A DNA stretch of 64,000 nt, from contig JABCTC010000006.1 of assembly GCA_018238545.1 (NCBI GenBank), forward strand, positions 1 to 64,000. The letters are read 5' to 3'. The notes under the pieces are model-generated. The model saw only the letters and a list, made by a program, of their open reading frames with translations. It did no database searches and had not been told where the DNA came from. This document shows, in pieces, positions 2,557 to 63,190 of the stretch. This DNA comes from Candidatus Heimdallarchaeota archaeon (lineage in GTDB: Archaea; Asgardarchaeota; Heimdallarchaeia; Heimdallarchaeales; Heimdallarchaeaceae). Within the stretch, counting starts at the first letter, position 1. Every line of letters begins with the position of its first letter. The position numbers and the translations under genes were made by a program.

Positions 2557-4140
2557 CTACACGGTTCTTGTTATTTGCTCTTGCTGCAATTGTAAATACT
2601 TTAGTAATGTATTTTCTAATCTAGAGAATCCGTAGAGCCTACATTTCTTTATAGCCATATATTGCAAAGCTGGACCTAGAGGATCTCCGTTCTTATATGC
2701 TCCTACTTGGATAAAAGCTTCCATAAATATGCGCATTTCTAGAACCTCAATTCTATGGAGCTTGTTCTCATATTGTTTGAGAAGAGGAGAGATTTCAGCA
2801 TACCGTTTAAGAGTAAACAACTGTTGAGCAATAAGGAGATTTGCATAAACATTTTCCATAAATGTAGTTTTCTTTGTTTTTACGCGCTTTTCTAAGATGG
2901 AAATACAGTTCAAAACCCTTTGTTCTTGACTAATCTCTCTCTCTAATTGTTGTTTTTCAAGCATAAACTCGATAAGATATTTTATTCGGTTAACGCTGAA
3001 ATTATCTATTTCTAATAACTGTTGAAGTTTGTCAGTATCGAGATTGGAATTGAGGATAAACTCACTAAGAGTCATGAAATCGCTAAACAAGTCTTTACAA
3101 TTTGCGAATATATCATCGATCAGTTTTTGATGTTCTTGAGAATTATAATTACTTAAACGTGAAATATTGTAAAATTTTACGAGATTATGGGTATGTAGAA
3201 TCTGCTTCTTGGTATTTATATCTATATTTTTCTGGATAAATTCAGTTTGAAGGAGCGTATCAGCAAGTTTGTCAATTTCAATCGCTTGTTTTGTTTTCCC
3301 TAGTAAACCTGTGACAGTAGCAAGATAAGAATGTAAAACGATAAAATAACCATAAAAATCACTTTTCAAATAAATTGGTTTAAGAATACTGTAAGCCTCC
3401 TGAAAATATGATTCAGAAATTCTCAAATTAGCATCTAACATGTATCCTAATCCCACAAAATAGTAAATCATACCCTTAACTTCTTGAGCTAGTCCATCGA
3501 ATAAAATCCTATCAGAAAAGATTCTTTTGCTTATATTCAGTGCTTTCTTACTGTCATGAGTTCTAGTGTATATAATACTTAGAAGACCAAATGTTTGGGC
3601 TAAACTTCTATGATAACCTTCCTCAAAGAAATAACTTGAACATTCTTCTAAAATTGTGGAACTTTCAATATCATGTTCACTTAACCATTTTTCTACTGCT
3701 AGAGAGTACATACAAACATGAAAAGCATATTTCTCGGGATTGGATATCTTCTCTATATAAGCGATAGATTTGCTAAGAGCTTTTTTACTCTTTTCTGTGT
3801 TCCCCTTTATTTTTTCTATATACCATTCAACATTATAAGATAAAGCTAAACCCTCTATATAGTTAATCTCGTTTGATAGATCTTTCATGGCACTTGCTAT
3901 TTCTGAGATTTCAGAAGCTCTACTAAATAGATGTTCTATCAATGATACCTTAATTTCATATACTTTCACTAAGGATTTTTTATCATCAAGTTGCTTACAT
4001 TTTTCAATGACCTTTTCAATAAATATCAAATTCTCATTGTTGGATTTCTCATTTTTAGCTACAACTCTAAATCTTTCAATAAATGTAGATAAAGATTCTT
4101 TTGACTCAAGTTTCTGAAAATCTTTGAATTTATGTTCCAT
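2557..4140 (-). CDS. Helical/TPR-like protein, paralog 1 of the micropeptide-associated family
   Basis: 527 aa, helical-repeat-like; NEKS motif and a C-terminal block shared with 6003-7583 and 61601-63190. Confidence 0.8.
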   Translation of the reverse strand: MEHKFKDFQKLESKESLSTFIERFRVVAKNEKSNNENLIFIEKVIEKCKQLDDKKSLVKVYEIKVSLIEHLFSRASEISEIASAMKDLSNEINYIEGLALSYNVEWYIEKIKGNTEKSKKALSKSIAYIEKISNPEKYAFHVCMYSLAVEKWLSEHDIESSTILEECSSYFFEEGYHRSLAQTFGLLSIIYTRTHDSKKALNISKRIFSDRILFDGLAQEVKGMIYYFVGLGYMLDANLRISESYFQEAYSILKPIYLKSDFYGYFIVLHSYLATVTGLLGKTKQAIEIDKLADTLLQTEFIQKNIDINTKKQILHTHNLVKFYNISRLSNYNSQEHQKLIDDIFANCKDLFSDFMTLSEFILNSNLDTDKLQQLLEIDNFSVNRIKYLIEFMLEKQQLEREISQEQRVLNCISILEKRVKTKKTTFMENVYANLLIAQQLFTLKRYAEISPLLKQYENKLHRIEVLEMRIFMEAFIQVGAYKNGDPLGPALQYMAIKKCRLYGFSRLENTLLKYLQLQQEQITRTV

Positions 4141-4191
4141 AAATTAGTCCACCAAACAAAGTAAACTGTACTCTTCGAGATATAAGTCATT

Positions 4192-4320
4192 TCAAAAAAA
4201 TTGCATTAAGATTGCATTTTTTAGTATGCGTAATAATAAAAAAACCCTTATGGGTCTCCATAAGGGCGGCATTATACTTTCATCTCCGTCTTCCGGATCA
4301 TATTTTTGTTTCATTTGCAT
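4192..4320 (-). CDS. YDP-PPxW micropeptide copy 1 (MQMKQKYDPEDGDESIMPPLWRPIRVFLLLRILKNAILMQFF)
   Basis: Hand-translated; homologous to the other copies up to PPLW; shared upstream element present. Confidence 0.6.
   Translation of the reverse strand: MQMKQKYDPEDGDESIMPPLWRPIRVFLLLRILKNAILMQFF
4238..4266 (-). terminator. Hairpin plus T-tract inside micropeptide copy 1
   Basis: Minus strand CCCTTATGG-AGAC-CCATAAGGG-TTTTTTT, a perfect 9-bp stem. Confidence 0.5.
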
Positions 4321-4416
4321 CACTCTATTAGTTATACTTAGAAGTGCTATAACATACTAAAAGACAACAAGAAAGAAACTGACAATATAGGTGCTTTACT
4401 AGTAAACACATACAAC
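4321..4416 (-). promoter_or_regulatory. Conserved upstream element of micropeptide genes (copy A)
   Basis: Contains the 25-mer CTAAAAGACAACAAGAAAGAAACTG (4357-4381), also at 7775-7799, 61300-61324 (reverse complement) and 4568-4592 (1 mismatch). Confidence 0.7.
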
Positions 4417-4452
4417 AAAACAAGAATTTGAAAAGAAAAATTAGAAATGAGA

Positions 4453-4524
4453 TTAATTAGGAAACCACAGTGGGGGAAGGATTGATTCGTCTCCATCTTC
4501 TGGATCATATTTGTTTTTCATCAT
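4453..4524 (-). CDS. YDP-PPxW micropeptide copy 2 (MMKNKYDPEDGDESILPPLWFPN)
   Basis: Hand-translated 23 aa ORF preceded by an SD-like GAGTGA. Confidence 0.75.
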   Translation of the reverse strand: MMKNKYDPEDGDESILPPLWFPN

Positions 4525-4531
4525 TGTGCAT

Positions 4532-4626
4532 CACTCATTACGTTATACTTAGAAGAGACAAAAGATACTAAAAGGCAACAAGAAAGAAACTGACGATAAA
4601 ATCGTTTTACTAGTAAACATATCAAC
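4532..4626 (-). promoter_or_regulatory. Conserved upstream element (copy B)
   Basis: Tandem duplicate of 4321-4416. Confidence 0.7.
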
Positions 4627-4666
4627 GGAAAAAGCATAAAAGTCTGCACATCCTAATTCAATTGTC

Positions 4667-5785
4667 ATGACTATTCAAGAATTATCAAAACGAGATGTCT
4701 ATAATCTAGTTATAGGTGCAAAGATTTTAGCCTGTGGTGGAGGGGGAAGTGAAGCTAAGGCTCTCGAGAATATCAATAAAATATATGACATAGGTCTAAA
4801 TTTTACGATTGCTGACTTAACAGATTTTCAACCAGATGATAGTCTTTGTATCATTGGAATGGTTGGAGGAGGAATTACTGAAGAAGAAAAAAGAATAGTT
4901 GAAGAAAAAGAAATAGTAGAAAAGAAACCTATGATTAGAGCTGTTAAAGAACTTGAATTGTTCCTAGGGGAAGAATTCAGCGCTTTTGTAGCCACTGAAC
5001 TTGGACCTTACAACAGTATTATTCCTTTGATGGTAGCTGCTCAAATGGGTAAAGTTGCCATCAATGGAGATTGTTGTGGAAGGAGTAAGCCAAAAATATC
5101 TATTAGTACAACAAGGGTCAAAGATTTTTCAATTGCACCTTTCTCAATCGTTAGCCAATATGGTGATATTCAGATTGTGAAAAATGTAGCAGATGATATT
5201 AGAGGTGAACTCATTGCTAGAACCTCTTCACGTTTGTCGGGAGGATCAGTGAGCGTTGCTCGATGTCCTATGAAGGTTAAAGAAGCTCAGAAAGCAGTTA
5301 TTCCTCAAACTCTGTCTTTAGCAATAGAATTAGGTAAACAGGTAAGGACAGCTAATGAACAAAAAAAACAACCGATGAAAACAATTCTCGATACACTCCC
5401 TGAAACTAGAATAGTTTTTACTGGGAAGGTAAGAGATTTTTCAAGAACCGAAGAAGGAGGTTTTACCTCAGGGGAAATTATACTAGATTCTCTGAATGTA
5501 AAGAACCATGAATTAAAGTTTTGGTACCAGAATGAATATCTTCTCTCTTGGTTAAATAACGAACCATTCGTTACCTGTCCAGATGGGATTTACATGGTTG
5601 ATTCTAAAACAGGGTACGGTTTAACTCCGTGGGAGAATGATTTCAAACGAAATAGAGAAGTTACAGTCTTTACAAGAGAAGCTCCAGAGATTTGGAGATC
5701 AGAAAAAGGGTTACAGGTATTCGGGCCTAGAGCTTTCAATAAGAATTGGCCAATGTATAAAAGAGCAAGTTCATTCAAACTATAA
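4667..5785 (+). CDS. DUF917 family protein
   Basis: GAKILACGGGG, ELGPYNS and GDCCGRSKP correspond to DUF917 motifs (G.GGGG, E.G..N, D.MGRA.P). Confidence 0.8.
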   Translation: MTIQELSKRDVYNLVIGAKILACGGGGSEAKALENINKIYDIGLNFTIADLTDFQPDDSLCIIGMVGGGITEEEKRIVEEKEIVEKKPMIRAVKELELFLGEEFSAFVATELGPYNSIIPLMVAAQMGKVAINGDCCGRSKPKISISTTRVKDFSIAPFSIVSQYGDIQIVKNVADDIRGELIARTSSRLSGGSVSVARCPMKVKEAQKAVIPQTLSLAIELGKQVRTANEQKKQPMKTILDTLPETRIVFTGKVRDFSRTEEGGFTSGEIILDSLNVKNHELKFWYQNEYLLSWLNNEPFVTCPDGIYMVDSKTGYGLTPWENDFKRNREVTVFTREAPEIWRSEKGLQVFGPRAFNKNWPMYKRASSFKL

Positions 5786-5831
5786 TTTACTAAAGAATTT
5801 TCAAGAAGTAGAAGAAGAAAAAGAAATGAAA

Positions 5832-5900
5832 CTAGTATGGAGATCACAATGGGAGAAGGATCGATTCGTCTCCATCTTTGGGGTTATATTTAGTCTTCAT
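5832..5900 (-). pseudogene. YDP-PPxW micropeptide copy 3, degenerate (MKTKYNPKDGDESILLPL*SPY)
   Basis: The conserved Trp codon is TGA here and the upstream element is lacking. Confidence 0.6.
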
Positions 5901-6002
5901 CGTCTATCATTAATTTAAAAAGAAAGAAACACAAAAAACCAGAAGAAATTTAGAGACAAAAAGAAAAACCTCCAAAGAACATAAGAACCCCTCTCTTGAG
6001 TT

Positions 6003-7583
6003 CTATATTGTTCTTGTTATCTCCTTATGCTGCAATTGCAAATAATCCAATAATCTGTTTTCCAATCGAGAGAAACCATAGAGCCTACATTTCTTTATTG
6101 CCATGTATTGTAAAGCTGGACCAAGAGGATCTCCGTTCTTATATGCTCCTACTTGAATAAAAGCCTCCATGAAAATACGCATTTCCAGAACATCAATCTT
6201 GTGAAGTCGTTTCTGATATTTCTTTAATAGAGGTGAAATCTCTGCGTATCTTTTTGAAGAAAATAGTTGATTAGCTATGAGTAAATCAACATAAACATGT
6301 TCAATATAAGTGTTCATTCCTGTTTTTATTCGGTTTTTCAAAATAGCTATACAGTTCTGAATCTTCTGCTCTTTACTAATCTTTGACAAAGATTTCTGTT
6401 TTTCAAGTTTAAATCTAATAATATGCTTAATTCGATTTATACTGTAGTTATTGATTAATAACATTTGTCTTAGATTCTTACTGTTAATGTCTGCAACAAG
6501 CATGAATTCACTTAACATTACAAAATCGCTATAATACAATTTACAATCTTTTAGAATAATAGAAATTAGTTTTTGATCTTCAATTTTTTCATATACAGCA
6601 GTCCTAGAATAGACATAAAATTTCGTTAAATTAAATGTGTGTTTAATCTGATTTTCATTAAATTTAGTAAGATTGCTCCTCAAAACATCCATTTCTAATA
6701 ATTTTTCAATTTGTGCTATTTCTTTTTGGGAAGTATCTAAATTTCCTTGTAAAGCTGTAATTACTAAAAGATGGGAAAGAGTTGGAATATAGTATGTTGA
6801 TTTAATCATCTTATTCTGTTCAAATATTTGTTTTACTTTTAGGAAAAATGTTTTAGCTTTAGAAAGGGAACATTGCAACTTAAAAGAAACCCCCAAAAAG
6901 TAATAGGCTATAACCTGCAAGTCTTTTGGAAGTATCTCTAGATCTAACTTCATGGAAAGAATCTTCTGTGCTATCTTAATCGCTTTATTTCTTTTCTGCA
7001 TATGCAGATATATGATACTCAGATATCCCAATGAATGAAACAGACCTTTATAGTTTCCCACATTAATAAAATATGAAACACATTCCTCAAATATTTCACA
7101 GCTCTTGAAATCATAATCCTCTAACCAGATTTCTATTGCGTAGCTATATCTAGTTACATTATAGGTATATATGTCTAGATTGTTCGATGATTTTAGTAAT
7201 TCCATGGCTTTTAGTATTGCTTTCTTGCTCTTTGTTTGGTTTCCTATAAATTTCTCAAAGCCCCATTCAATTGAATAACAAAGAATTAGCCCCTCAGTAT
7301 AATTCATTTTTGTTGCTAAATTCTTCATATCTTGAAGTGTCTTACTAATTGAGGAAACAGTGTTTCGATTTCCAAACAATTGCTTTATCCTTAATTCATA
7401 TAACTTGATTGTAGCAATTGAATGGTTTAATCTACAGCTCTTTTCAATTGCTTTTTCTATTATACTGATAACTCCGTCTGATTTCTCATTTGCTGATAAA
7501 ACACGAAGTTTATCAATTATCTCCTCTAAATCCTTCAACGTTTGAATTTTATCTATGTGAAAATGTTGATTACTATAACTCAA
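6003..7583 (-). CDS. Helical/TPR-like protein, paralog 2
   Basis: 526 aa; ANEKS motif; C-terminal LEMRIFMEAFIQVGAYKNGDPLGPALQYMAIKKCRLYGFSRLEN identical to paralog 1. Confidence 0.8.
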   Translation of the reverse strand: MSYSNQHFHIDKIQTLKDLEEIIDKLRVLSANEKSDGVISIIEKAIEKSCRLNHSIATIKLYELRIKQLFGNRNTVSSISKTLQDMKNLATKMNYTEGLILCYSIEWGFEKFIGNQTKSKKAILKAMELLKSSNNLDIYTYNVTRYSYAIEIWLEDYDFKSCEIFEECVSYFINVGNYKGLFHSLGYLSIIYLHMQKRNKAIKIAQKILSMKLDLEILPKDLQVIAYYFLGVSFKLQCSLSKAKTFFLKVKQIFEQNKMIKSTYYIPTLSHLLVITALQGNLDTSQKEIAQIEKLLEMDVLRSNLTKFNENQIKHTFNLTKFYVYSRTAVYEKIEDQKLISIILKDCKLYYSDFVMLSEFMLVADINSKNLRQMLLINNYSINRIKHIIRFKLEKQKSLSKISKEQKIQNCIAILKNRIKTGMNTYIEHVYVDLLIANQLFSSKRYAEISPLLKKYQKRLHKIDVLEMRIFMEAFIQVGAYKNGDPLGPALQYMAIKKCRLYGFSRLENRLLDYLQLQHKEITRTI

Positions 7584-7663
7584 TCAAACCCACTAAATAT
7601 ATTATGAAAACTTTGATTTATATACTTGGTAGATATTTCAGCTCCAAAAAGAAGGTAAAAAGG

Positions 7664-7738
7664 CTAGTTTGGAAACCAGCCAGGAGGAAGAATGTCTTCA
7701 TCTCCGTCTTTAGGATCATATGTTTGTTTCATTTGCAT
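7664..7738 (-). CDS. YDP-PPxW micropeptide copy 4 (MQMKQTYDPKDGDEDILPPGWFPN)
   Basis: Hand-translated; ends 80 nt upstream of paralog 2 on the same strand. Confidence 0.75.
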   Translation of the reverse strand: MQMKQTYDPKDGDEDILPPGWFPN

Positions 7739-7833
7739 CACTCTATCAATTATACTTAGAAGAGGCAAAATATACTAAAAGACAACAAGAAAGAAACTGC
7801 CAATTCCTCACCTTGTCTAGTAATATTATCAAC
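7739..7833 (-). promoter_or_regulatory. Conserved upstream element (copy C)
   Basis: Identical 25-mer at 7775-7799. Confidence 0.7.
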
Positions 7834-7888
7834 AAAACCCATTTAATTTTTAAATATCGTAAATAAGGTACAATTACTTGTTCAAAAG

Positions 7889-10305: not shown

Positions 10306-11816
<1,511 letters not shown>

Positions 11817-14041: not shown

Positions 14042-17000
14042 CCTACACTATGCATACGCCATGTAGTGGATGACTCGGCTAGGGTGCCGATGAAGGGCGC
14101 GGTAAGCAGCGAAATGCTGCGGGGAGACGCAGACTGTCTACGATCCGCAGATTCCCGAATCGGATTTCCGGTCATAGCTTAATAAGTTGTGACAGCCAGT
14201 AATGGCGGGGTACCCAGGGAACCAAAACATTCAAGTACCTGGAGGAAAAGAAAACAATCGTGATTCCGGTAGTAACGGCGAGTAAACCCGGAACAGGCCA
14301 AACCGAATTCCCTTTTGGAAACATTAGGGTAGATGTGGTGTTTTTGACTACGTAAAAGATCGTCAGAGTTAAGTCGAATATCCCTGGAAAGGGAAGCTAT
14401 AGAGGGTAATAGCCCCGTAGACGTAAGCTCCCGACTTAGTAGTATCAAGACTAGCGTGGCTTGGATTTGTCGCGCAAATATGGGAGGACTAACTCCCAAG
14501 CCTAAATACACCCCTAGACCGATAGCGCACTAGTAACGTGAGTAAAAGTTGAAAAGTATTCGAAGTACGAGAGTGAAAAGTACCTGAAACTACATGGTAA
14601 CAGACGTGGATGGCCCGAAAGGGTAGAGTCTCGGTGAAGGAACCCATCGTGAGGTGGTAGTACGAGCTGAGAGGACCAGGGTCATCCGTTCCGTCTCGAA
14701 ACACGGGCCGAGGAGTTCAGGTTTGTGGCGAGCCTAAGTTTTATACGGTGGCGTAGCGAAAGCAACCTGCGCGCAGCTTCGGCAAGGCGCGACGTCCGAT
14801 AAGGGCGTGAAGTCACAAGTCTGAGACCCGAAAGCAGTTGATCTATCCCTGACCAAGGTGAAGCGCTTCGAAAGGAGCGTGGAGGCCTGAAGGGTTATTG
14901 ATATGCAATTCATTCCTCTGAGTTGGGGATAGTGGCAAAAGACCAATCTAAACTGCTGATAGCTGGTTCCCCCCGAAGTATCACCACAGGATAGCGTCGC
15001 TGGAGGTGGCATGTGAGGTAGAGCTACGGACGGAAGGTTCTGGAGAGTGAAATCTTCACCCTTCCTTCCAACTCCGAACTTGCATGCGCCGTAGAAGGCG
15101 ACAGACGGGCGCGTGTCCGCAAGGGATGCGGCCGAAAGGGGAACAACCCTACATCAGGTTAAGGGCCCTAAATCCCGGTTAAATGTTAAACAGAATGGCG
15201 TCCAATAACAAAGACAATGAGGCGGTAAGCTTAGAAGCAGCTATCCGTTAAAAAAAGCGTAACAGCTTACTCATCGAGTTGTTGGGCCCAGAAAATGGAC
15301 GGGGCTAAACCGGGTCCCGATACCTGATTGAACTTCAAAAGAGTTTTAGGTAGGGGGGCGACCGGGTTGGGTAGAAGCTGGGGAGTGATTCCCAGTGGAC
15401 CGATCTGGTTTGCAGATCTCGGTGGTAGTAGGAGCATAGTGAGGTGAGAATCCTCACCGCCGGAAGCCCAAGGGTTCCTTGGCACTGTTCGTCAGCCAAG
15501 GGTTAGTCGGTCCTAAGGTCGATCTTAAAACGAGTCGATCGAAAGGGGAACAGGTTCATATTCCTGTACCACGCTTATAGACGCGGCGACGCAAGCTTTG
15601 AGCTAACGCTGGTGGGTAGGTGACCTAGGAGAATATCCTAGTTAAATTTCGAAATCTGGGGAGAACCGTTAAGGTGAGAACCAGAAGAATAGATGAAGAG
15701 GCTGGCCATTGGTTGCTGGCTGTCATCAACCCCAACAGCTCATAAAAAGGCAAAGAGAACGATTAAGCGTGTCCGTACCCAGAACCGAAACAGGTGTGGC
15801 TAGCTTAGAAGGCTAAGGCGTGTTAGGAGAGCTTAGGTGAAGGAAATCGGCAAATTAGTCCCGTACCTTGGGTATAAGGGATGCCTGGCGAGGTGTATGC
15901 CTCACCAGGTCGCAGTGACTTGGGGCACCCGACTGTTTAATAAAAACATAGCAAACTGCAAGGGCGAAAGCCTGAGTACAGTTTGTGAATCCTGGCCGGT
16001 GCTGGTGATTGAAACCTGGGTTCAACCAGGCTAAGACCCAGTAAACGCCGGAGCTAACTATGAGCTTCTTAAGGTAGGCAAATGCCTTGTCTGCTAATTA
16101 CAGACGTCCATGAAGGGACCAACGAGGTGCCCACTGTCTCCACCTAAAGCCTACTGAACCCACAGTCCAGCGAACAGTCTGGAACGCACCATCGGGAAGA
16201 GAAGACCCTGTGGAGCTTTACTGCTGTCAGGGGCTGTTGTATTGGTGTGCATACATAGCATAGTCAGGAAACGTTATATCCTACATTCTCCGGGATGTAG
16301 GGGAGTTGATCTTGAAATACTGACTTTGTGCATTGGTACGACTTACCTCTCGCGAGGGGGACACCCCCTGCCTGGCAGTTTCACTGGGGCGGTAGCCTCT
16401 TGAAAAGATATCAAGAGGGCCCAAAGCCAAGCTCAACCGGGACAGAAATCCGGTGTAGAGTGCAAGGGCAAAAGCTTGGTTGACTGTGAACTCACCAACA
16501 CGGTTCGCAGATGTTAACGCAGGGCCTAGCGATCCTTCGCAATGCCCTTAGTAGGCGGCGGAGGTGGCAGAAAAGTTACCCCAGGGGTAACTGCGCTTCT
16601 TTATAATACTTACGTGTAAAGTTGTGCTCTCATCTGGGTAACATTTATCTGTTGCAAAAATTTTTTCAATTGGCAGAGCTAAAATAAATTATTAGAAAAT
16701 TGCTCCTGTCTTCAATTTCCGGTGAGGAAATTATATAGGTTTTCGCCAAATTGGCATAATAAAATCTTGAACAGAATGGGTCCATTATCTGTCTGATATC
16801 CCAACAAATTGATAAGGAATTCCCTAAAAAGATTAACAACACAACAGATGAAGAGCTACAACAAAAGCGTGAGTACTCGATAGGTGACAAGATTGGTAAC
16901 TGCCCTTCACGGGGTTAACAATTGATCTTCGAACCAATGTGCTATGTATTTTGCATAAGCGCAGCCCTGAACAGAGTTGTCGTGGGTAAGAGTTCACATC

Positions 17001-17453
17001 GACCTCACGGCTTGCTACCTCGATGTCGGCTCTTCCTAGCTTGGTCCTGATTCAGGGGCCAAGAGTGGGGTTGTTCGCCCATTAAAAGGGAACGTGAGCT
17101 GGGTTTAGACCGTTGTGAGACAGGTTGGATTCTATCTGATGGTGCTGGCGGGCGATTGAGAGTAAAGCTTCCACAGTACGAGAGGAACAGGCAGCTGGGG
17201 CCGCTGGTGTATCGGTTGTTCTACCGAGCATGCCGAGTAGCTAAGCCCTTGTAGATAAGAGCGGAATGCATCTACGCTCGAAGCTACCCTCGAAACGAGT
17301 CGCCCACTCTGCAACACTATAAAGGGACTGGTGACAGTAACTTTCGTTGTAGACGAGAACGCGGAAAGAAGATCCGTTTGATAGAGAAGGGATGTACGCG
17401 TCGAGCTTAGGCGAGATGTTTAGTCCACTTCCACTAATTGTTCAAGCGTAGTT
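14042..17453 (+). rRNA. rrl: 23S rRNA (with 381-nt intron); ends approximate
   Basis: CCGATGAAG, GACCGATAGCG, GACTGTTTAATAAAAACA, CTCGATGTCGGCTC, sarcin-ricin loop AGTACGAGAGGAAC. Confidence 0.97.
16590..16970 (+). other. 381-nt BHB intron in the 23S peptidyl-transferase loop (between E. coli-equivalent 2450/2451)
   Basis: GGGG-UAA-CUGCGCUU ... AAGCGCAG-CCCU-GAA forms a BHB; splicing gives GGGGUAACAGAGUUGUCG; AT-rich interior. Confidence 0.88.
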
Positions 17454-17819
17454 AGGCCAAATAGGAATCGGTTCGTCAGATTCTTGGAGAGTTCTTGTCA
17501 GCTGATTTTAGTTTACTTGATTTTTTTGACTCTTTTGTAGTTTTTACAATTATTCAATAAATAACATAGAGAAGTTTCTGCTTACAGGGCTTGGTGATTA
17601 TTATTTATTATTTATTCTTGCCTTCACTGATTAACAACGAGAGTATAAAATGAAAAACTAACAGGAAAAAGTTAAGTCTATCGAGACTCAGAGAATTGTT
17701 GGATTCAAATCCATTCTTTATTATCAAGTTTAGCGAAGGTATTTTATACTCTTTTCTCGTTTTAATTAATGGTAACAACAGAGTAATTTACTGAGGAAAG
17801 AATTTAGTGGGGACTAAGT

Positions 17820-19505
17820 ATGTTTAATATTAAAGAATTCTACAAAGCAAGGGAAAGATTGTTTGAGAATCAGAATAATATACATGCTTTGCCTGATTTA
17901 CAGGATTATCTTTTAGATTTGGATATGGTTTGTGCAAATGAAAGATCAAAAGAGATGGCAGATTTGCTTTCAGCTTTAATAAATATAGCAAAACCATTAA
18001 ATGACAATCAAGTACTATTTGAATTATACTGGCAATACTTTCTTCAAACATATTATTATGTTAAACAATTGAATAAAACAGAGTTTACTATTGATAACAT
18101 GAAACAAAACATGGAAGAAACCAATAATATGGAACAAATCTCAAGAATTTTTCAAGCTGAATCTCTAATTAATCAATTAAAGGGCAATAAAAAAGAATCT
18201 ATTGAATTCATGCATAAAGCACTAGAAGTAATAGAAACTCACAAAGATGATTACCCTGAGATTTATTATAGTGCTCTATATGCATACTCACATTTTTCTT
18301 TTCTTCAAAATAAACATTCCCCTAAAGTTGAAGTAAATATGGAGAAATGCCTCAGATATTATTCAAAAAGCTATAATATGAGAGGTCTAAATGTAGTAAT
18401 TAATCAACTTTTGAGATTTTATCTACATTCAGGAAACGTGGAAAAGATTGAGAAACTTCTAGAATGGGTTTTTGAAAAGGAACAACTTCATAAACGCATG
18501 TTGGACAATCATCTTATTTCGTTTTATTGGTTTTTGGGAACCATGAATACAATTAGGAACAAACTAACTCATGCAATCGAATATCTTAATAAGGCATATT
18601 CAAAGATAAAAGAACAGAAGTTACAACAAGAAATGATGTATGAATACACAGATATTTTGAAATTTTTAAGTCGATGTTATGCACATCAAGGGAAATTCCA
18701 GTTAGCACATGATCTATTAATAGAGTTAGCAAGTTTTATGGAAGATGAAAATGTAAAATCAAATTACTTTGCAAGAGGTAAATGGTATATATTTGTAAGT
18801 TCATATTACACACTTCTGTTCATTTTTATTCAACTAGACTTGAATATTGAAGATGTAAAAGATGAAAAATTAAGAAGAATTTATGAACATACAAATTCTC
18901 TATTAAGTAAGTTTAAAATATCTGAAAAGCTCATTTTAAGTGCTTTCTCCGATGATAAAAACATACAAGAAATATTTGAAAATAACATTGATAAAAGTGA
19001 AACAGAAGTATCAATTATATTACAGCAATTATTACTTACACATGTGCCATATAAAAGCAAAGAGAAAAGCGTTCAAACAATCGAGAAACTAAGAGAATAT
19101 GCTATTGATCCTTTATATGCAGATATTTTAATAGGAAAAATTCTCATTTCTATGGGGAATTATGATAAATTTAGAGAAATAGTAAACAAAATTGTGAGAG
19201 AAACAACGGAGACTAAAGCCCCTATCTTGAAAATCTGGAGGGATTTTTATGTCTTACTAAGGAATTATTTAGATGAGTCTGATAACAAGAATGTTATTGA
19301 AGGACTAGTAAAGTTAGAGGAGCATTGTAGAAGAAATAATTTCTTTAAGATGGGGGAAGAGATAAAGATGTATCATAGATTAATTTCGTTTTCAAGAACA
19401 ATAAATCAATTTACAGACAAAATTAAGCAAACAGCTTTTATGGATATGTACGATAAAGAATCAAGAAGAATGGCAATGGAATATCTGGAAAGTAAAGAAA
19501 GTTAG
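17820..19505 (+). CDS. Helical/TPR-like protein, divergent paralog 3
   Basis: 561 aa; ANERS and QLKGNKKES match ANEKS and KLKGNKENS of the paralogs; TPR-like segment WFLGTMNTIRNKLTHAIEYLNKAY; different C-terminus. Confidence 0.75.
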   Translation: MFNIKEFYKARERLFENQNNIHALPDLQDYLLDLDMVCANERSKEMADLLSALINIAKPLNDNQVLFELYWQYFLQTYYYVKQLNKTEFTIDNMKQNMEETNNMEQISRIFQAESLINQLKGNKKESIEFMHKALEVIETHKDDYPEIYYSALYAYSHFSFLQNKHSPKVEVNMEKCLRYYSKSYNMRGLNVVINQLLRFYLHSGNVEKIEKLLEWVFEKEQLHKRMLDNHLISFYWFLGTMNTIRNKLTHAIEYLNKAYSKIKEQKLQQEMMYEYTDILKFLSRCYAHQGKFQLAHDLLIELASFMEDENVKSNYFARGKWYIFVSSYYTLLFIFIQLDLNIEDVKDEKLRRIYEHTNSLLSKFKISEKLILSAFSDDKNIQEIFENNIDKSETEVSIILQQLLLTHVPYKSKEKSVQTIEKLREYAIDPLYADILIGKILISMGNYDKFREIVNKIVRETTETKAPILKIWRDFYVLLRNYLDESDNKNVIEGLVKLEEHCRRNNFFKMGEEIKMYHRLISFSRTINQFTDKIKQTAFMDMYDKESRRMAMEYLESKES

Positions 19506-19535
19506 TAAATAAAAAGAAAAAAGATAGTGATTTCC

Positions 19536-19619
19536 TTAAGGGATTATCGGAAACCAGCAAGGAGGTAAACTCTCATCATCGGTTGGTTCTGGATCATATG
19601 TGTTATTTGTGTTTTTCAT
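19536..19619 (-). CDS. YDP-PPxW micropeptide copy 5 (MKNTNNTYDPEPTDDESLPPCWFPIIP)
   Basis: Hand-translated; convergent with paralog 3; GAGTGATG upstream. Confidence 0.7.
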   Translation of the reverse strand: MKNTNNTYDPEPTDDESLPPCWFPIIP

Positions 19620-19871
19620 TTTGCATCACTCATAGTTCATATTCTACTATTATCCTTCAATGAAAGAATAAGTATGCAAAGGAAATTCATTGCCAATTAG
19701 ATGGTTTTTCTGACAAAAGTATCAACATAAAGAAGAAAAACGCATTCTAGTGGCTTTGGAACAAATTATCTCCTCTCTCTCTTCCTTAACAATTTTGCTG
19801 TGCTTTTATAGTTCGAAGTAGTACATCTTTTGTATAAAATCAGTCTTCTATCACCCCTAAGAGGAGAGTTC

Positions 19872-22712
19872 ATGAGCAAAAAGAATAATCTCCATTATGA
19901 AAAAAGATACGGATATCAATCAAAAAAACACTCTAACAGAGTGCTAAAGAGTTTACTTTCCATTATTTCTGTTGTATCAGTAGGTATCATTTCTCTATTT
20001 TTCCTCTTCCCTGAGATTACAATATTGATTCCTTCAACCTTTGTTCAATCATTTTCTCTTTTTTGTGAGAGCATAGGCACTGCCATAGTTATCTTTTTTA
20101 CAACTGTATTGACAAATAAATATTTTCTCATTTCACTTTTTTGTTTATTAACCTGTTTAACAATCATCTTCTTTTTACCATATAGACCCGTTAGAGGTAA
20201 GAAGCAATTTACCTTGAAAAAATTAGGTTTACCTCTCTATAAGACTGTCAGTATGGTTGTTGTGTATTCTTCTTCTTGTGATAATCCTAAAAATTTCAGA
20301 TTCAATGCTTATGCAAATAAGACTCATTCTGCTTTTCTCAGTAGTTTATTAATGAAGTTCAAACTTCTTTCTTTGGTCTTCTACAAAAACAATGAAAACC
20401 TTAACATGCTCCTTCCTATAGTTTCGAAGGGCTTTAATTTGAAAAACCTTCAAAATAAAATGAGAAGACAAATTGATTTTGTTGCTAATTCCCTTGATAC
20501 TCATTATGGTAGCAAGGTAAAAGAGCTATCAGCTGAACAGGTCAATAATCTTCTAATTTCTTTAGAAAAAATGGAATCAAGAACAAAAGTAGATCTTACT
20601 TCTGATTTAATTAATAACTTCAATCTTACAGACCAATTACACAACACTCTCCTAAGAAAAGATGCTGGTTGCACCTGTTTATTGATAAAAGCGGAGAAAA
20701 AATCTAATGATAAGAGTCATTTGGCCTCAGACATGATTATATTCTCTGAGAATAGAAAAATAGAATCTCATGTCTTGAACTCCTGCGGGTTGAAAAAGAA
20801 AAAAACACTGGATTTGCTTACCAAGAGATTGAAATTTACCGATTTATTGTTTTCATCTCTTCGGAAAAGAAATCTTTCAGAGATTGAAGAATTATCAACA
20901 TTATTTCATATCCCTCTCAACTATAAGGGTGGACCAATTTCAATACGGTCTTCTTCTACTTCTACAAATCTCTCTTCTGCACTTAAAGATCAGAATTTAA
21001 TGATAGTGGGTCAGACAGTTGAGGGCGATGAAATAGGTAAAGATGTCACTATAAATGTTAAAGACCTTCTTCTAAATATAGAAATATTTGGAATGATAGG
21101 AAGAGGGAAGACGAAACTGGTCTCTTCTTTACTAAAACAGGTTCTAGATTACAATGTTAGTGCTCTTGTTTTTGACATTAAAGGGGAATATTCAAGATTC
21201 TTTGTAGACGATCCTCGAGTGGAAATTTTTACAATAGGAGAGCCTAGACCCCTATGTCTGAATCTATTTGAAACAATTGATAGTGAAGATGTACATAATA
21301 CATTGTTAATTATTGAAGAGATGATGATGTCATCAAATTTGGAATTTACTCCTTCGATGAAAAACTTGTTCGAAACAGCGTTATTCCAAACACATGGTTC
21401 TTCAAAAAGGAACCTACAAACTTTTGTAGAAAACGTGTACAAAGTAGCGGAAAATATTCGTTCTACTACAAATAGTTCCTATATTCAACAAACTATTGAT
21501 GCTGTTCTAAATAGATTAAATTTCATCTTCAATCCAATTAATTATGAAATATTAGGGGCGATACGAACAACCTTAGATTTATCTCTTCTGGATAATAACA
21601 AAAGCATAATCTTGGATTTGAGTCAGTTTCAAAAACGTGCAGCTAGACCCTCAGACATTTTTCTAATTTGTAATCTTATTTTGAAAAAACTTTATCGCCA
21701 CGCTTCTGCTAAGGAAATTACAGATAAACTAAGATATGTTGTTGTCTTGGAAGAAGCTATAAACATTATACCAAATTTTTATCGACCAGAGAGTTCTGCA
21801 TCCCTCATAACCTCTGAGAACAATTTCTTGTTGGGACGAAACTTGGGTATTGGTCACATAACCATCTCACAGTTGTGGTCTAGCGTTAGTAATATTGTCC
21901 ATGGTAACTCAGCTACCAAAATCATCTTTCGTTCAAGCGAAAAAGCCGATATTATAGGCAAATCTATCAATTTATCAGAAGATGAGATAAGCAAGATTCA
22001 AACACTGCCAACTCAACATTGCTATATTTTCTTTGAGGGATCAGAGAAGCCTATTAAGATTAGAACATTTGATTTACTAAGCGATCCCCTTAACTTTGCT
22101 GAATACCGCTCTAAAATTATTAAACGATATGGAAGAAGTGTCTTTCCCTTACTTTACAATAATTTTATTGAAATGAGAACCTCACTTTACCAGAAATACA
22201 ATCTCAGTACTAAGAAAAAATTCGGTCAATCAAACCAAGGACGGAGTACAAGTAATGCACAATCAAGGTTGAAGGACTTCCCACTCCAAGTAAAAACTGA
22301 AGACGATGAGAGAAAGGCTGTTGATAATTCTATAGCTGAAAAAGAAACGATGGATATTGTAAATTCGGCAGAGTTTTTACCTGAAAACTTGTTATGTGAA
22401 CAACTATGTCCAGAGAAAAACCATGGGAGAGATTGTGTTAAGTATAATATTGGGTCAAAAATAATCAAAACCATTATTACTAAAAACAGTTCTTCAAAAG
22501 AGTTAGCTTTCCTATTAGATAATCCCTCTCAACTGCTATCTATAGTCAAAGATTATGCTGAAAAGAGAAATCTAGAATATGATTCGTTTCTAGCATTTTG
22601 CACTGTAAAGAGCCTAACCTTAGATTTAGTTACAGGTGGAATTCTAACCTTCCAGGAAGCTTTTGAGTTTCTTAAGAAATTCTCTCCTCAAACTCAAACA
22701 ACAATGACATGA
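19872..22712 (+). CDS. Membrane-anchored HerA/VirB4-like (DUF87) ATPase
   Basis: N-terminal TM segments; Walker A GMIGRGKT, FDIKGEY, Walker B VVVLEEA, ISQ. The ORF track starts at 19830 (TTG). Confidence 0.8.
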   Translation: MSKKNNLHYEKRYGYQSKKHSNRVLKSLLSIISVVSVGIISLFFLFPEITILIPSTFVQSFSLFCESIGTAIVIFFTTVLTNKYFLISLFCLLTCLTIIFFLPYRPVRGKKQFTLKKLGLPLYKTVSMVVVYSSSCDNPKNFRFNAYANKTHSAFLSSLLMKFKLLSLVFYKNNENLNMLLPIVSKGFNLKNLQNKMRRQIDFVANSLDTHYGSKVKELSAEQVNNLLISLEKMESRTKVDLTSDLINNFNLTDQLHNTLLRKDAGCTCLLIKAEKKSNDKSHLASDMIIFSENRKIESHVLNSCGLKKKKTLDLLTKRLKFTDLLFSSLRKRNLSEIEELSTLFHIPLNYKGGPISIRSSSTSTNLSSALKDQNLMIVGQTVEGDEIGKDVTINVKDLLLNIEIFGMIGRGKTKLVSSLLKQVLDYNVSALVFDIKGEYSRFFVDDPRVEIFTIGEPRPLCLNLFETIDSEDVHNTLLIIEEMMMSSNLEFTPSMKNLFETALFQTHGSSKRNLQTFVENVYKVAENIRSTTNSSYIQQTIDAVLNRLNFIFNPINYEILGAIRTTLDLSLLDNNKSIILDLSQFQKRAARPSDIFLICNLILKKLYRHASAKEITDKLRYVVVLEEAINIIPNFYRPESSASLITSENNFLLGRNLGIGHITISQLWSSVSNIVHGNSATKIIFRSSEKADIIGKSINLSEDEISKIQTLPTQHCYIFFEGSEKPIKIRTFDLLSDPLNFAEYRSKIIKRYGRSVFPLLYNNFIEMRTSLYQKYNLSTKKKFGQSNQGRSTSNAQSRLKDFPLQVKTEDDERKAVDNSIAEKETMDIVNSAEFLPENLLCEQLCPEKNHGRDCVKYNIGSKIIKTIITKNSSSKELAFLLDNPSQLLSIVKDYAEKRNLEYDSFLAFCTVKSLTLDLVTGGILTFQEAFEFLKKFSPQTQTTMT

Positions 22713-56970: not shown

Positions 56971-56972
56971 TA

Positions 56973-59696: not shown

Positions 59697-59807
59697 TCAG
59701 AGAGAACATTATTCGCTGTTTTAGTAAATGCTAATTGATTTCTCGGTGTTTAAATAACTTCTTCTAATAAAGATAATGAGTTTCAATTCAAATTAAATAA
59801 TTCGAAG

Positions 59808-61217
59808 TTGACGACAATGATGACTGTAGATCACCTTTCAGAAGAAAAGCAAAATTCTTTAGATTGGAAGCAGAATAATGATATTATTACAATACAAGTA
59901 TTCGAGATTAGTTTGAATAGGAGTCGAGATCAACTAGCAAATTTGTTAACGGAATTAAAGTCAAAAAACGTAATGTTTACTTTGAAAATAACAAGAAACA
60001 ACCTTTTTCTCTTGATTTATTCTCTGAACAATTCAGGAAATACAAACAAAGAAACTGGGTTGATAAATCATGTTGTGCAAACTTATTCTCTCAATGATAC
60101 AGTTAATGTAGAGGATTTTTTCATTCAAAATGTGAAGAAAGTAGTTCAAAAGGATTACATTCTACAATTCTTTCATGAAGGTGAAAAACAGTCCTATGCA
60201 CTAGGGCTTTTGCTTTCTTCAATAGATTCAGATTCTAATAGTTTTTTGAAGCATTTTACTAATTTCATGGTTAATCTTGTGAAAGCTGATATTTTCTCAA
60301 TAATTATTTCTTCTATCCCATCAATTGACAGAACAGCTTCAATACGCTCAAAATGGGCGCTAATGCTTCTCGCTCAATCTGATAACCGAATTCAGATAGA
60401 AAAAAAGGAAGAAACATTTCATCGTTTCCTAAATGCGAATTCATCAAAACTACATTGTAAATTATCATATATAACAAAGAAAGAATTCGTGAGGCACAAA
60501 ACAAATTTTAGATACCTTGTTCCTTGGCATTATCATAAAGGCGATTTTGCAGATAATATTGAGATAAACAAATTACTGATATTTGATAACAATTCTCTTA
60601 ATCCAACAGTAGAGCATTACACAAATACACTTAGTACAACCCAATCTACTCCAGTTAAAGAAAAACTAATAATCAAAGAAGCTCGGGTGGTTAAACGACC
60701 CTTTCCTTCTGTCAAAGCTTCAAAACCTAGCAAACACATTTCTCCCCCAGTAATTGTTGAAGCGGAGAGAAAACCCAATTTTACAAGAATGAAGAGGGAC
60801 AAATATTTGGTAAGTAATTTAGACGATATTTCTATTCCTATGCCAAAAACAATGAATGTTGTTTTTGATTTAGAGTATTTGAAGGTAAGAATTAGCAAGA
60901 TGTTTAAGGATTTCGAATTTAAAGAAACAGTGATTTTTGAGGATGATTTTGACTTGGTTCTTCGAAAAGGATCCTTTTATATATTTACTAAATTCTATAA
61001 GGAGATTCTAAATCAAGCTGAAGCCTATAAAATTATTGAACATTTAAGTAGTATAGCAGGGTTAAGGAACCAATTTTTATGTATTGTAGTTGCTGATACT
61101 ATAGAAGAAAAATCTATGAAGATTCTAAACGAGTTTAATGTGCTTCATTTAACGTTAAGTGATGTTTTACTTGAGGATACGCTGAAAAATAAGATTTACA
61201 ATACTATCTTAGCCTAG
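59808..61217 (+). CDS. Hypothetical protein; C-terminal restriction-endonuclease-like fold possible
   Basis: Long ORF; C-terminal FDLVLRKG...FTK pattern. Confidence 0.5.
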   Translation: MTTMMTVDHLSEEKQNSLDWKQNNDIITIQVFEISLNRSRDQLANLLTELKSKNVMFTLKITRNNLFLLIYSLNNSGNTNKETGLINHVVQTYSLNDTVNVEDFFIQNVKKVVQKDYILQFFHEGEKQSYALGLLLSSIDSDSNSFLKHFTNFMVNLVKADIFSIIISSIPSIDRTASIRSKWALMLLAQSDNRIQIEKKEETFHRFLNANSSKLHCKLSYITKKEFVRHKTNFRYLVPWHYHKGDFADNIEINKLLIFDNNSLNPTVEHYTNTLSTTQSTPVKEKLIIKEARVVKRPFPSVKASKPSKHISPPVIVEAERKPNFTRMKRDKYLVSNLDDISIPMPKTMNVVFDLEYLKVRISKMFKDFEFKETVIFEDDFDLVLRKGSFYIFTKFYKEILNQAEAYKIIEHLSSIAGLRNQFLCIVVADTIEEKSMKILNEFNVLHLTLSDVLLEDTLKNKIYNTILA

Positions 61218-61269
61218 AAAGATGGCTGTTTTTTACCACCTTTGTTTATAATGCTGCATCAATTATTGC

Positions 61270-61362
61270 GGATAATACAACTAGAAAACAGGGGAATGGC
61301 AGTTTCTTTCTTGTTGTCTTTTAGAATATTCTTACACTTCTAAGTATGCCTTAATAGAGTGA
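61270..61362 (+). promoter_or_regulatory. Conserved upstream element (copy D)
   Basis: CAGTTTCTTTCTTGTTGTCTTTTAG (61300-61324), CTTCTAAGTAT, GAGTGATG. Confidence 0.7.
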
Positions 61363-61368
61363 TGAATA

Positions 61369-61440
61369 ATGATGAAACAAACATATGACCCTGAACCTGG
61401 CGATGACGACATAGGACCACCGTTGTGGTTTCCTAATTAA
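61369..61440 (+). CDS. YDP-PPxW micropeptide copy 6 (MMKQTYDPEPGDDDIGPPLWFPN)
   Basis: Hand-translated; followed by a T-tract, then paralog 4 on the same strand. Confidence 0.75.
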   Translation: MMKQTYDPEPGDDDIGPPLWFPN

Positions 61441-61600
61441 TTTTTTTTCTTAATCTGTTTTGAATGGATAATTTATATCAATGGTTTTTACTTATTTATT
61501 ACCCGAGTTTATATATGAAATGTCGGATTAATTTATAGATAACTGTTGCGCGCATGTATTGAAAAAAATAATTGTGTAGTAAATCAGTTTTCAAAGAAGT

Positions 61601-63190
61601 TTGGTGAGAGTTGTGTTGGATTCTAATCTGTGGAACAAGATTAAATTAGTTAAAACAAAGGAAGATTTAAGACGTTTTATTGATGCCTTGAGAATTATTG
61701 CAGCTAATGAAAAATCAGAAGGAGTAAGAGATCTCATTAATGAAACGATTAAAAAATCTCTAGAAATTGAGGATGGTATTTCTCGTATTCATCTGTACGA
61801 ATTAGAAATAAAGCAGATTTTTCATCAAACTACAGAATTGCCTAAGGCCGAGAAAAAACTAATAAAAATGAAAAAACAGTCAATTGAGCAGAATTACAAG
61901 GATGGTTTAATTCTTAGCCTTTCAATTGAGTGGGGAATTGAAAAACTAAAGGGAAACAAAGAGAATAGTAGAAGAGCCATTACTCAATGCATGACTCTGT
62001 TAGGAAATAATAATGCTACCGACGAATATGTTTATCATATTTGCAGATACATTTATGCAACTGAACAGTGGATAGACGAGCACAACTACCAATGTTCAAA
62101 CATCCTTGAGGGGCTTATTCCTTATTTTCATCGAAAAGGTTTCCACAGAAGCATTGCACAAATTCTAGGAATGTTGTTAATTATATATCAACACACTCAA
62201 AATGAAGCAAAAGCAAGTTATATAAGCGAACAGTTATTTAGCAAAAAATACCAAATTAGTCAGCAATCTGATGATTTCCAAGTAATGTCTTATTATTTAG
62301 CTGGTGTAGGGCAATTATTGGGTCACAATTTGAAACAAGCAGAGAATCTGTTCAATGAATCTTATGTCTTGTTAAATAAACAACTACAGCAGAGCAGTTA
62401 CTATGCCTATTATTATATTAGATTATTATCCCATATTGCGATTGTTCAAGCTCTGCAAGGTAAAATTGCTCTTTCATATGAAAATATTGGAAAAGTTGAA
62501 AAACTGCTTGAAGATGATTTCTTTTCAAAAAATATGGACCCATATAGTAAGAAACAAGTTCCACACACTTTGAATTTAATCAAATTCTATGTAAAATCAC
62601 GTCTATATGGCTTCAAAACTGAGAATATTCAATAGCTTATAGGACAGATATGTAGAGGGATTGAAGGTAATTATAGTGATTCGATCCTTCTCAGTGAATT
62701 TATTCTGAATGCAGCATTAAATGAAAAACTGCTAGAAAAACTAATTGAATCAAATAACGCAAGTTTACTGCGAATTAAACACATCATAGAATATATGTTA
62801 CTAAAATCACAGAACAATGATGAAGATACTGTTGGTTCTTATAGAAACGCTCTAAATAGAAAATTGAAAACTAAACGGATTACTTTTATTGAACAAGTAT
62901 TTTCTAAGCTTCTACTTGCTCAAGAACTTTTCAGTAAGCAACAATATTCAGAAATCGCTCCTCTATTGAAGAAATACGAGCACAGACTACGGCGAATTGA
63001 AGTCCTGGAAATGCGGATTTTTATGGAAGCTTTTATCCAAGTAGGTGCATATAAGAACGGAGATCCGCTTGGTCCAGCTTTACAGTATATGGCAATAAAG
63101 AAATGTAGAGATTATGGGTTTTCTAGATTGGAAAACAAACTGCTAGATTACTTACAACTACAGCGAAAGGAGATAACAAGAACTAAATAG
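61601..63190 (+). pseudogene. Helical/TPR-like paralog 4, split by one in-frame TAG (62633-62635)
   Basis: Both ORFs share a frame; the intervening codons (LIGQ...YSDSILLSEFILN...RIKHIIEY) align with paralogs 1 and 2. Confidence 0.82.

Follow-up and report, generated by a model that had tools for sequence, protein, structure and literature searches.

Receptors of the RRNPP group other than Rap bear an N-terminal helix-turn-helix (HTH) domain, and their ligands derive from pro-peptides that carry a secretion signal and are processed to 5-10 residues. In the known complexes between tetratricopeptide repeat (TPR) proteins and peptides, the peptide runs antiparallel and fills the groove. To our knowledge, no peptide-based communication or peptide-switch system has been established in any archaeon. 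The present study concerns a stretch of 64,000 nucleotides (nt), hereafter the window, which comprises positions 1-64000 of contig C86 of a 3.63-Mb archaeal metagenome-assembled genome (MAG; 128 contigs, 34% GC), and in which very short peptide genes accompany genes for TPR-type proteins. Since the peptide and the protein change together, residue for residue, they are most likely specific pairs of ligand and receptor, of a kind undescribed in archaea. On the combined basis of sequence, a predicted structure and analogy, we consider it fairly probable that the cognate pairs work as a binding switch, analogous to the Rap/Phr and Rgg/SHP systems without being members of them.

The described RRNPPA systems are those of the Bacillota, their mobile elements and phages (PMC12700828), whereas the system reported here has an archaeal host and occurs in a single family. 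The literature on archaeal RRNPP, Asgard quorum sensing and small proteins of Heimdallarchaeia contained no description of a peptide-TPR system. Like the RRNPP systems, the one in the window combines a TPR-type helical-repeat receptor (according to an AlphaFold2 (AF2) model) with a small adjacent peptide gene and, judging from covariation, shows paralogue-specific co-diversification of the two; unlike them, it has no sequence homology to Rap, Rgg, NprR, PlcR, PrgX or AimR.

As in Rap/Phr, the receptor is an all-helical TPR protein without an HTH domain whose action would rely on protein-protein contacts, each receptor gene is adjoined by a small gene for its cognate peptide, there are many fast-diversifying pairs per genome, and orphan peptide genes occur; the Rap of phage phi105 with its peptide is also the second-best structural match. 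The receptor is, however, longer (~530 residues, compared to ~380 in Rap), the peptide gene of the main type lies upstream with its own putative promoter, whereas Phr is encoded downstream in an operon, and the peptide of 20-27 residues lacks a signal sequence and is conserved over its full length. The streptococcal Rgg/SHP and ComR/ComS systems also employ peptides of ~20-25 residues without a classical signal and with an aromatic-rich C-terminal part, encoded by an adjacent gene of varying orientation, and Rgg2 is one of the two best structural matches of the C-terminal domain of the archaeal receptor. In contrast to these systems, the archaeal proteins have no N-terminal HTH domain, the peptides are not hydrophobic but acidic and hydrophilic, and no export or processing of the PptAB/Eep type was identified. 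The eukaryotic subunits of the anaphase-promoting complex (APC/C; Apc6-Cdc26 and Cut9-Hcn1) and LGN-Inscuteable resemble the archaeal pairs in that an extended peptide of 20-40 residues would lie along the groove of a long TPR superhelix, and the antiparallel, full-length binding that we propose would be similar to theirs, by analogy with those structures. No sequence match to the APC/C proteins was obtained, further APC/C components did not come to light, no search having been aimed at them, and the eukaryotic pairs are single and conserved, as opposed to the many paralogous archaeal pairs with their variable specificity residue.

Peptide genes of the window and their family

The peptides were detected using a profile hidden Markov model (HMM) built from 49 of them. 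Thirteen copies were found in the 3.63-Mb genome at E <= 3e-6, the next match having E = 3.3; the distance from each of the 13 to a family gene is 34-336 nt, the eight family genes in question being located on contigs C86, C10 and C68, and the PPxWxP motif is absent from every open reading frame (ORF) of at least 150 residues in the genome. The micro-ORFs are therefore not chance occurrences. A first-pass annotation of the window, made from its sequence, had placed a peptide gene near each of the four paralogues; the location of peptide genes beside the family, and with it their enrichment there, is also seen well outside the window.

The peptides are 20-27 residues in length and conform to the consensus M-x(0-6)-[YFH]-D-P-acidic-G-D-acidic-[ILV]-a-P-P-b-W-c-P-(0-3 residues), in which P, PP, W and P are invariant and a, b and c denote variable positions. 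At position c, which follows the invariant Trp (W+1) and is hypervariable, F, R, S, Q, W, H, T, C and other residues occur, but never an acidic residue, Lys or Gly. The peptide is conserved along its whole length and has a hydrophilic, acidic N-terminal half. Among 70 distinct DNA copies from ~25 genomes, the entropy of the first two codon positions is zero for the invariant Pro and Trp residues and near zero for Asp, whereas that of the third position reaches 1.4-1.8 bits for the Pro codons and 0.9 for Asp. The confinement of variation to third codon positions implies selection on the amino-acid sequence and not on DNA or RNA, as had already been suspected from the synonymous codons of the window copies. 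Judging from their sequences, the peptide genes are translated. A longer precursor can be dismissed, since the frame is closed by stop codons a few codons upstream. Eight of the peptides were looked up in a collection of 15 billion proteins, in which none was present; hence, they have so far not been called as genes. The family is sizeable and has remained hidden, with at least 150 distinct, never-annotated peptide genes next to ~90 receptor genes in one Asgard family.

The window contains four TPR-type genes (T1-T4) and the peptide genes p1a, p1b, p2, p3 and p4. Peptides are classed by their residue at position c, and receptors by a signature composed of columns 64, 68 and 71 followed by the region of residues 104-107. 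The features, with coordinates in the window, are:

T1, 2557..4140, minus strand: TPR-superhelix protein of 527 residues (from the translation), main type; signature E-S-E / N-V-E-W-Y, Arg class
p1a, 4192..4323, minus strand: peptide gene proximal to T1, ending in ..IMPPLWRP, with Arg at W+1, the same class as T1
Promoter-like block of p1a, 4324..4390, minus strand: conserved CAGTTTCTTTCTTGTTGTCTTTTAGTAT, TATA-like element at 4355-4361, then Shine-Dalgarno GAGTGATG
p1b, 4453..4524, minus strand: second peptide gene upstream of T1, ending in ..ILPPLWFPN, Phe class; followed by an oligo-T tract at 4431-4440
Promoter-like block of p1b, 4525..4600, minus strand: TATA-like element at 4566-4572
Degenerate peptide copy, 5832..5900, minus strand: MKTKYNPKDGDESILLPL, then an in-frame TGA; 100 nt downstream of T2
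T2, 6003..7583, minus strand: TPR protein of 526 residues, main type; signature E-K-F / S-I-E-W-G, Phe class; its own TATATAAAT box lies ~45 nt upstream of the gene
p2, 7664..7738, minus strand: peptide gene ending in ..ILPPGWFPN, Phe class, paired with T2; oligo-T tracts downstream at 7646-7661
Promoter-like block of p2, 7739..7808, minus strand: TATA-like element at 7773-7779
T3, 17820..19505, plus strand: protein of 561 residues from a divergent TPR subfamily, ~20% identical to T1
p3, 19536..19619, minus strand: peptide gene ending in ..SLPPCWFPIIP, convergent with T3, the stops 31-37 nt apart; oligo-T tracts downstream at 19511-19522
Promoter-like block of p4, 61292..61368, plus strand: TATA-like element at 61319-61325 and a GTGA Shine-Dalgarno at 61359-61362
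p4, 61369..61440, plus strand: peptide gene ending in ..IGPPLWFPN, Phe class; a T8 tract follows directly at 61441-61448
T4, 61601..63190, plus strand: TPR gene of the main type, with S-I-E-W-G as its signature (Phe class) and an in-frame TAG at 62633-62635

All six micro-ORFs and all four paralogues of the first-pass annotation are present, with some amendments. The four intact peptide genes, of 23-27 codons each, lie exactly where they had been placed (4453-4524, 7664-7738 and 19536-19619 on the minus strand, 61369-61440 on the plus strand). The reading frame that had been given as 4192-4320 extends to 4323 and has lost its stop codon, making it ~20 residues longer (43 codons), and the copy at 5832-5900 is degenerate. 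T1, T2 and T4 are ~45% identical to one another in pairwise comparisons, whereas T3 is a distant relative (~20%). T4 is probably either a pseudogene or a gene with a sequencing error. About 10 further family genes in other genomes also contain a single in-frame stop, while the adjacent peptide genes are intact; family TPR genes thus appear to be pseudogenised often, with the neighbouring peptide genes persisting. An orthologue of T2 in another genome (locus L049) is adjoined by a peptide identical to p2.

Covariation of peptides and receptors

Each of 79 receptors was compared with its proximal peptide. The residue at position c is almost fully predicted by five TPR positions, namely columns 64, 68 and 71 and residues 104 and 107, the three columns being located one TPR repeat before 104-107. 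Gly at residue 107 is accompanied by Phe at c in 15 of 16 pairs, and the lone exception is a PH-variant WFPN peptide that the HMM had overlooked. His at 107 occurs with Ser (11/11) and Leu at 107 with Cys (4/4); His at 104 occurs with Trp (9/9), and Tyr at 104 mostly with Gln or His. The receptor classes are distinguished as follows, columns 64/68/71 being given first and the 104-107 region, where it is characteristic, second:

Phe class: E-K-F; ..W-G
Arg class: E-S/T-E; N-[IV]-E-W-Y
Gln class: G-P-Y
Ser class: D-R-Y; ..W-H
Trp class: S-x-H/Q; H at 104
His class: G-L-E
Cys class: G-[AG]-Y; ..W-L

In the Arg class, 9 of 10 pairs have a receptor with Glu at 64, and 8 of the 10 have one with Glu at both 64 and 71. 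The pairings of Arg with two Glu residues and of Phe with Gly would be chemically sensible, complementary ones. Within the window, T1 and p1a form an Arg-class pair, and both T2-p2 and T4-p4 belong to the Phe class. Independent contrasts were drawn on a whole-gene tree from which the trait columns had been removed, and changes in the same versus the opposite direction numbered 7 to 0 for Phe/Gly107, ~6 to 0 for Ser/His107, 6 to 0 for Trp/His104 and ~6 to 0 for Gln/Tyr104. The family genes are mosaic; on a tree of the N-terminal part (230 columns), the Ser/His107 association holds at ~5 to 0.

The extent to which parts of the peptide follow parts of the receptor was expressed as the number of parsimony changes on trees of receptor segments, divided by the number after shuffling. 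For c together with the C-terminal tail, the ratio is 0.43-0.44 on TPR residues 1-60, 0.33-0.38 on 61-140 and 0.70-0.98 from 141 onward; for a and the acidic variant, it is 0.61-0.78 on 1-60, 0.69-0.81 on 61-140 and 0.29-0.49 on 141-440. The pattern is bipartite, in that the C-terminus of the peptide follows TPR residues 1-140 and its remainder follows 141-440; although just 12 nt separate position a from position c, the two follow different TPR segments. With the signature columns removed, segment 61-140 tracks c no worse than the nearer segment 1-60 does (0.33 vs 0.43). By analogy with the structures of TPR-peptide complexes, this bipartite pattern would fit an antiparallel, groove-filling mode of binding. 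For the T3-type genes, 11 pairs were available, one of them N-terminally truncated, and the few class-specific columns at T3 45-130 are underpowered and not interpretable.

Distribution, gene order and transcription units

We compared 82 genomes of the class, 30 from the Heimdallarchaeaceae and 52 from six other families. The TPR family is present in 26 of the 82, all of one family and from three of its five genera. Peptide matches were obtained in 24 of the 30 family genomes, and the close TPR family is found in the same 24, a strict co-occurrence; the two remaining TPR-positive genomes contain distant relatives only. Neither the peptide nor the close TPR family was found in the 52 genomes of the six other families. 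The copy numbers climb in step, to a maximum of 10 TPR genes and 19 peptide matches per genome. The TPR family is narrow, with 66 matches among 1.84 billion representative proteins, and the named homologues of the window proteins, including the TPR family, are proteins of Heimdallarchaeota/Heimdallarchaeaceae or of Asgard MAGs.

Gene order was assessed in 88 distinct family genes with their flanks, an upstream peptide gene being sought within 800 nt. All 79 main-type genes with usable upstream DNA are preceded by one to three peptide genes on the same strand; of the nine exceptions, eight are the most distant relatives and one has just 107 nt of upstream sequence. The peptide gene of the main type lies 55-300 nt from the TPR start, and in 11 of the 14 genes of the T3 subfamily it is convergent, with a stop-to-stop distance of 35-75 nt. 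In other genomes, tandem arrays are common, as are degraded peptide remnants ~100 nt after the TPR stops. Intact orphan peptide genes (L031-L039; e.g., on G009:C12, G015:C199 and G024:C141) adjoin PEPCK, Orc1/Cdc6 and EF-G-like genes. A third and most distant TPR branch (~24% identity; C33:15372-16811 and C36:3783-5225, as well as L025, L026 and L058-L061) has no recognisable peptide gene. A second conserved ORF of 29-30 residues upstream of the C33-type relatives proved to be the C-terminal tail of a conserved neighbouring gene of 436 residues and was discarded.

The peptide genes have a common upstream block, which in 92 copies reads TGTCA-N2-TTTNTTTCTT..TTTANTA (also written TGTCA..TTTCTTTCTT..TTTAGTA), then TATAAG.ATAAC, then a GTGA Shine-Dalgarno. 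An oligo-T stretch occurs within 30 nt past the peptide stop in 76 of the 92 copies, and TTTATAWA boxes lie upstream of 24 of 53 TPR genes. From these signals we infer that peptide and TPR genes constitute separate transcription units. In other loci, 13 of the 53 TPR upstream regions further contain a direct repeat, [AC][ACT]TGCAA, with a spacing of exactly 11 nt, between the peptide gene and the TPR start. This repeat is a candidate operator; in the window, two AATGCAA repeats, 11 nt apart at ~4202-4219, are overlapped by the extended frame of p1a.

A perfect 114-nt inverted repeat (L034:2575-2688 and 4505-4618, on G023:C8) flanks an orthologue of T3 in genome G023, with a peptide ORF in each arm, and this orthologue is inverted relative to its HerA-like neighbour when compared with window 17820-19830. 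This locus may be capable of inversion or may have arisen by an inverted duplication of recent date.

Most genes around the modules have housekeeping functions and lie at syntenic hot-spots. In several genomes, genes for an M42 aminopeptidase and for an ABC ATPase plus FtsX-type permease directly adjoin modules (C10:7665-10334 and C68:7741-8886; L045, L047, L049 and L057), and genome G015 has the syntenic site without a peptide-TPR module. A functional tie of the transporter and the aminopeptidase to the modules was dropped, as their recurrence falls at these hot-spots. The genome also codes for at least 13 Opp/Dpp-type SBP_bac_5 binding proteins, which demonstrate a capacity for peptide uptake only.

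Structure of the TPR protein

Matches of the protein to Pfam are limited to sub-threshold TPR hits, NCBIfam gave no match, and a profile search against the sequences of the Protein Data Bank returned only designed repeat proteins and IFIT, at E >= 0.0016. The AF2 model (pLDDT 90.8, pTM 0.88) is a single, continuous, all-helical TPR superhelix with a predicted ~13-14 TPR-like repeats. No HTH, other DNA-binding, catalytic or toxic domain was found in the protein by Pfam, NCBIfam or the AF2 model.

The model was compared with 48,161 chains using VIA-align. The best full-length match is an APC/C subunit (4ui9_O; Z 20.0, 458 residues, root-mean-square deviation 7.8, 10% identity, no sequence match), followed by the Rap of phage phi105 with its peptide (Z 17.9, 324/350 residues aligned), LGN (16.6), Cut9-Hcn1 (2xpi_D; 16.5), NprR-NprX (16.3), Apc6-Cdc26 (3hym_B; 15.5), MalT domain III (15.0), the Rap of pLS20 (13.8) and PlcR (11.4). 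The alignments of NprR and PlcR begin after their HTH domains, at chain residues 66 and 60, respectively. The C-terminal domain, modelled alone as the last 132 residues (pLDDT 86), matched Rgg2 (Z 11.9, 124 residues aligned), a Listeria transcriptional regulator (4ryk; 11.9), PlcR (10.8), NprR (10.6), the generic TPR protein LGN (10.5) and PrgX (10.1). RRNPP receptors are enriched among the top structural matches. Foldseek gave no match to the C-terminal domain at E <= 0.001, and a feature search of the ESM Atlas returned nothing useful. A PADLOC match of T1 to a Cas11f-like protein (E 7e-5, helical residues 31-134) was dismissed as helical-repeat noise.

The last 65 residues are 88-91% identical among the window paralogues, compared to 52-65% identity at their fourfold-degenerate sites. 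The sequences indicate strong purifying selection on this C-terminal segment, and recent gene conversion was rejected as the source of its invariance in view of the low identity at the fourfold sites.

Proposed mechanism and alternative explanations

The first-pass proposal of a peptide-TPR module that is RRNPP-like and yet non-classical gains support from co-occurrence, adjacency, the predicted TPR fold and covariation. In the mechanism that we favour, each unit would be a two-gene ligand-receptor pair, in which the peptide binds the inner groove of the TPR array, probably over its full length, extended and antiparallel to the repeats. Position c and the tail would be read by a pocket in repeats 2-4, formed by columns 64, 68 and 71 and by residues 104 and 107 on either side of the near-invariant Trp106, while residues 141-440 would read the acidic stretch and positions a and b. 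The invariant N-terminal [YFH]DP motif may contact the near-invariant C-terminal 65-100 residues of the receptor, which could alternatively provide a shared surface for dimerisation or output. Occupancy by the matching peptide would switch the protein-protein output of the receptor, and the paralogues would act as insulated channels. The peptide may be either exported and re-imported, as in cell-cell signalling, or active inside the cell that produces it. Because of the separate regulation, the multiple copies and the orphan peptide genes, we lean towards a regulated signal over a stoichiometric subunit. A bolder proposal, which we regard as doubtful, is that the modules are the first peptide-based, pherotype-like cell-cell communication in Archaea, with diffusible peptides of 20-27 residues, cytoplasmic TPR receptors and a two-pocket code that arose independently of bacterial RRNPP.

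The putative specificity code, in which one peptide residue corresponds to about five receptor residues and the rest of the peptide to a second module, is open to direct test with synthetic peptides and point mutants. If binding is true, the pairs would provide a natural set of orthogonal peptide-TPR combinations and a new regulatory layer in the Heimdallarchaeia, and would represent convergence with, or very deep kinship to, bacterial pheromone receptors and eukaryotic TPR-peptide complexes. The heimdallarchaeal group is thought to contain the closest archaea to eukaryotes.

Several observations weigh against a ligand-operated switch. The receptor has no recognisable output domain, the peptides contain no hydrophobic signal-like segment, and the modules show no consistent linkage to a dedicated exporter or protease; the lack of a signal sequence in the peptides and of an HTH domain in the proteins had both been noticed at first pass. 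Orphan peptide genes amount to ~11% and occur at sites syntenic to C10 and C68 without a TPR gene. Of 22 sequencing runs listed for the locus, 20 contain part of the stretch, and all are DNA metagenomes, with no RNA run among them. The Z-scores of RRNPP receptors overlap with those of unrelated TPR proteins, and values below ~13 are common for helical repeats; the enrichment of RRNPP receptors, combined with these ties, therefore supports a protein that works like them and not membership in the group. The covarying columns were chosen post hoc among ~560, and on the N-terminal tree the co-changes fall to 3 to 0 for Phe/Gly107, 2 to 0 for Trp/His104 and 1 to 0 for Gln/Tyr104. In addition, a conversion tract extending from the Trp codon to approximately residue 140 could mimic the bipartite pattern, the 3' end of the peptide gene abutting the 5' end of the TPR gene.

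The latter points would agree with a peptide and a TPR protein that are only genetically linked, as a recombining cassette of co-converted blocks whose products have different targets: position c follows the neighbouring 5' portion of the TPR gene, with a decay over distance, and the independent co-changes are fewer on the local tree. Such an explanation is quite unlikely in our estimation. Pure linkage is rendered less likely by positions a and b and the acidic variant, which lie 3-12 nt from c and follow the distal module (141-440) instead of the nearer 1-140, and by the performance of segment 1-60, which is no better than that of 61-140; it would require tract ends to fall repeatedly at a single Trp codon. 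The chemical complementarity of the matched residues and the strict co-occurrence across genomes also speak against it, and selection for a two-pocket match would be the simpler reading of the sequences. Binding in itself, on the other hand, would be equally expected of an obligate structural cofactor, a stabilising micro-subunit such as Cdc26 in Apc6 or Hcn1 in Cut9, or of an antitoxin-like antidote that fills the groove with no signalling, and the covariation fits these roles just as well. The conservation of the whole peptide, its lack of a signal sequence, the prominence of the APC/C subunit, Cut9-Hcn1 and Apc6-Cdc26 among the full-length matches, and the frequent pseudogenes and presence/absence turnover, as in addiction or conflict modules, are all compatible with such a role. 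We nevertheless consider it unlikely, since the peptide gene seems to be transcribed separately, from a conserved promoter block and with a terminator of its own, a receptor may be accompanied by one to three peptide genes of differing classes, intact orphan peptide genes exist, and the TPR protein contains no detectable toxic or enzymatic domain.

Two further explanations assign the micro-ORFs other roles. They would resemble precursors of ribosomally synthesised and post-translationally modified peptides in their conserved N-terminal half, which would be an acidic leader, their variable, Pro/Trp-containing C-terminal core and their occurrence as several tandem genes per locus, and the modules of several genomes are adjoined by genes for an M42 aminopeptidase and an ABC ATPase with FtsX-type permease; the TPR protein would then be a recognition scaffold, provide immunity or exert regulation for a product that is modified and exported. 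This is very unlikely, as no modifying-enzyme domain occurs in the modules or consistently beside them, the TPR fold is non-catalytic, and a one-to-one code between core residue and TPR paralogue would be unexpected for a shared tailoring enzyme. Arrest peptides such as TnaC and SecM have PP, Trp and a terminal Pro among their features, and the conservation of these residues, together with the position of the main-type micro-ORF on the same strand, 55-300 nt upstream of the TPR start, would suit a TnaC-like, cis-acting leader or ribosome-arrest peptide, Pro-rich and with a Pro-stop end, that tunes the downstream TPR gene. We find this most improbable: an oligo-T stretch generally follows the peptide stop (the 76 of 92 copies mentioned above), many TPR genes have their own TATA box, most T3-type genes (11/14) have the convergent layout, the peptide genes occur in one to three tandem copies per gene or as intact orphans, and a role in cis would not explain why their residues match those of the mature TPR protein one for one.

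Other features of the window

Adjoining T1, positions 3-1814 (plus strand) contain a 5'-open ORF that encodes a Cas12f1/TnpB-like C-terminal domain. Its Pfam match is sub-threshold (25.7 versus a cut-off of 26.3 bits), and it may represent a remnant of a mobile element. T3 and p3 are adjoined by a gene at 19830-22712 (plus strand) for a HerA/FtsK-like ATPase of 960 residues (DUF87, with weak matches to CedD and mad8), and such an ATPase is also located next to a T3-type gene in genome G023. The rRNA genes for 16S (10306-11816, minus strand) and 23S (14042-17457, plus strand) are divergent and 2.2 kb apart. The 23S match comprises 3416 nt against a model of 2987 positions, which implies insertions or expansion segments.

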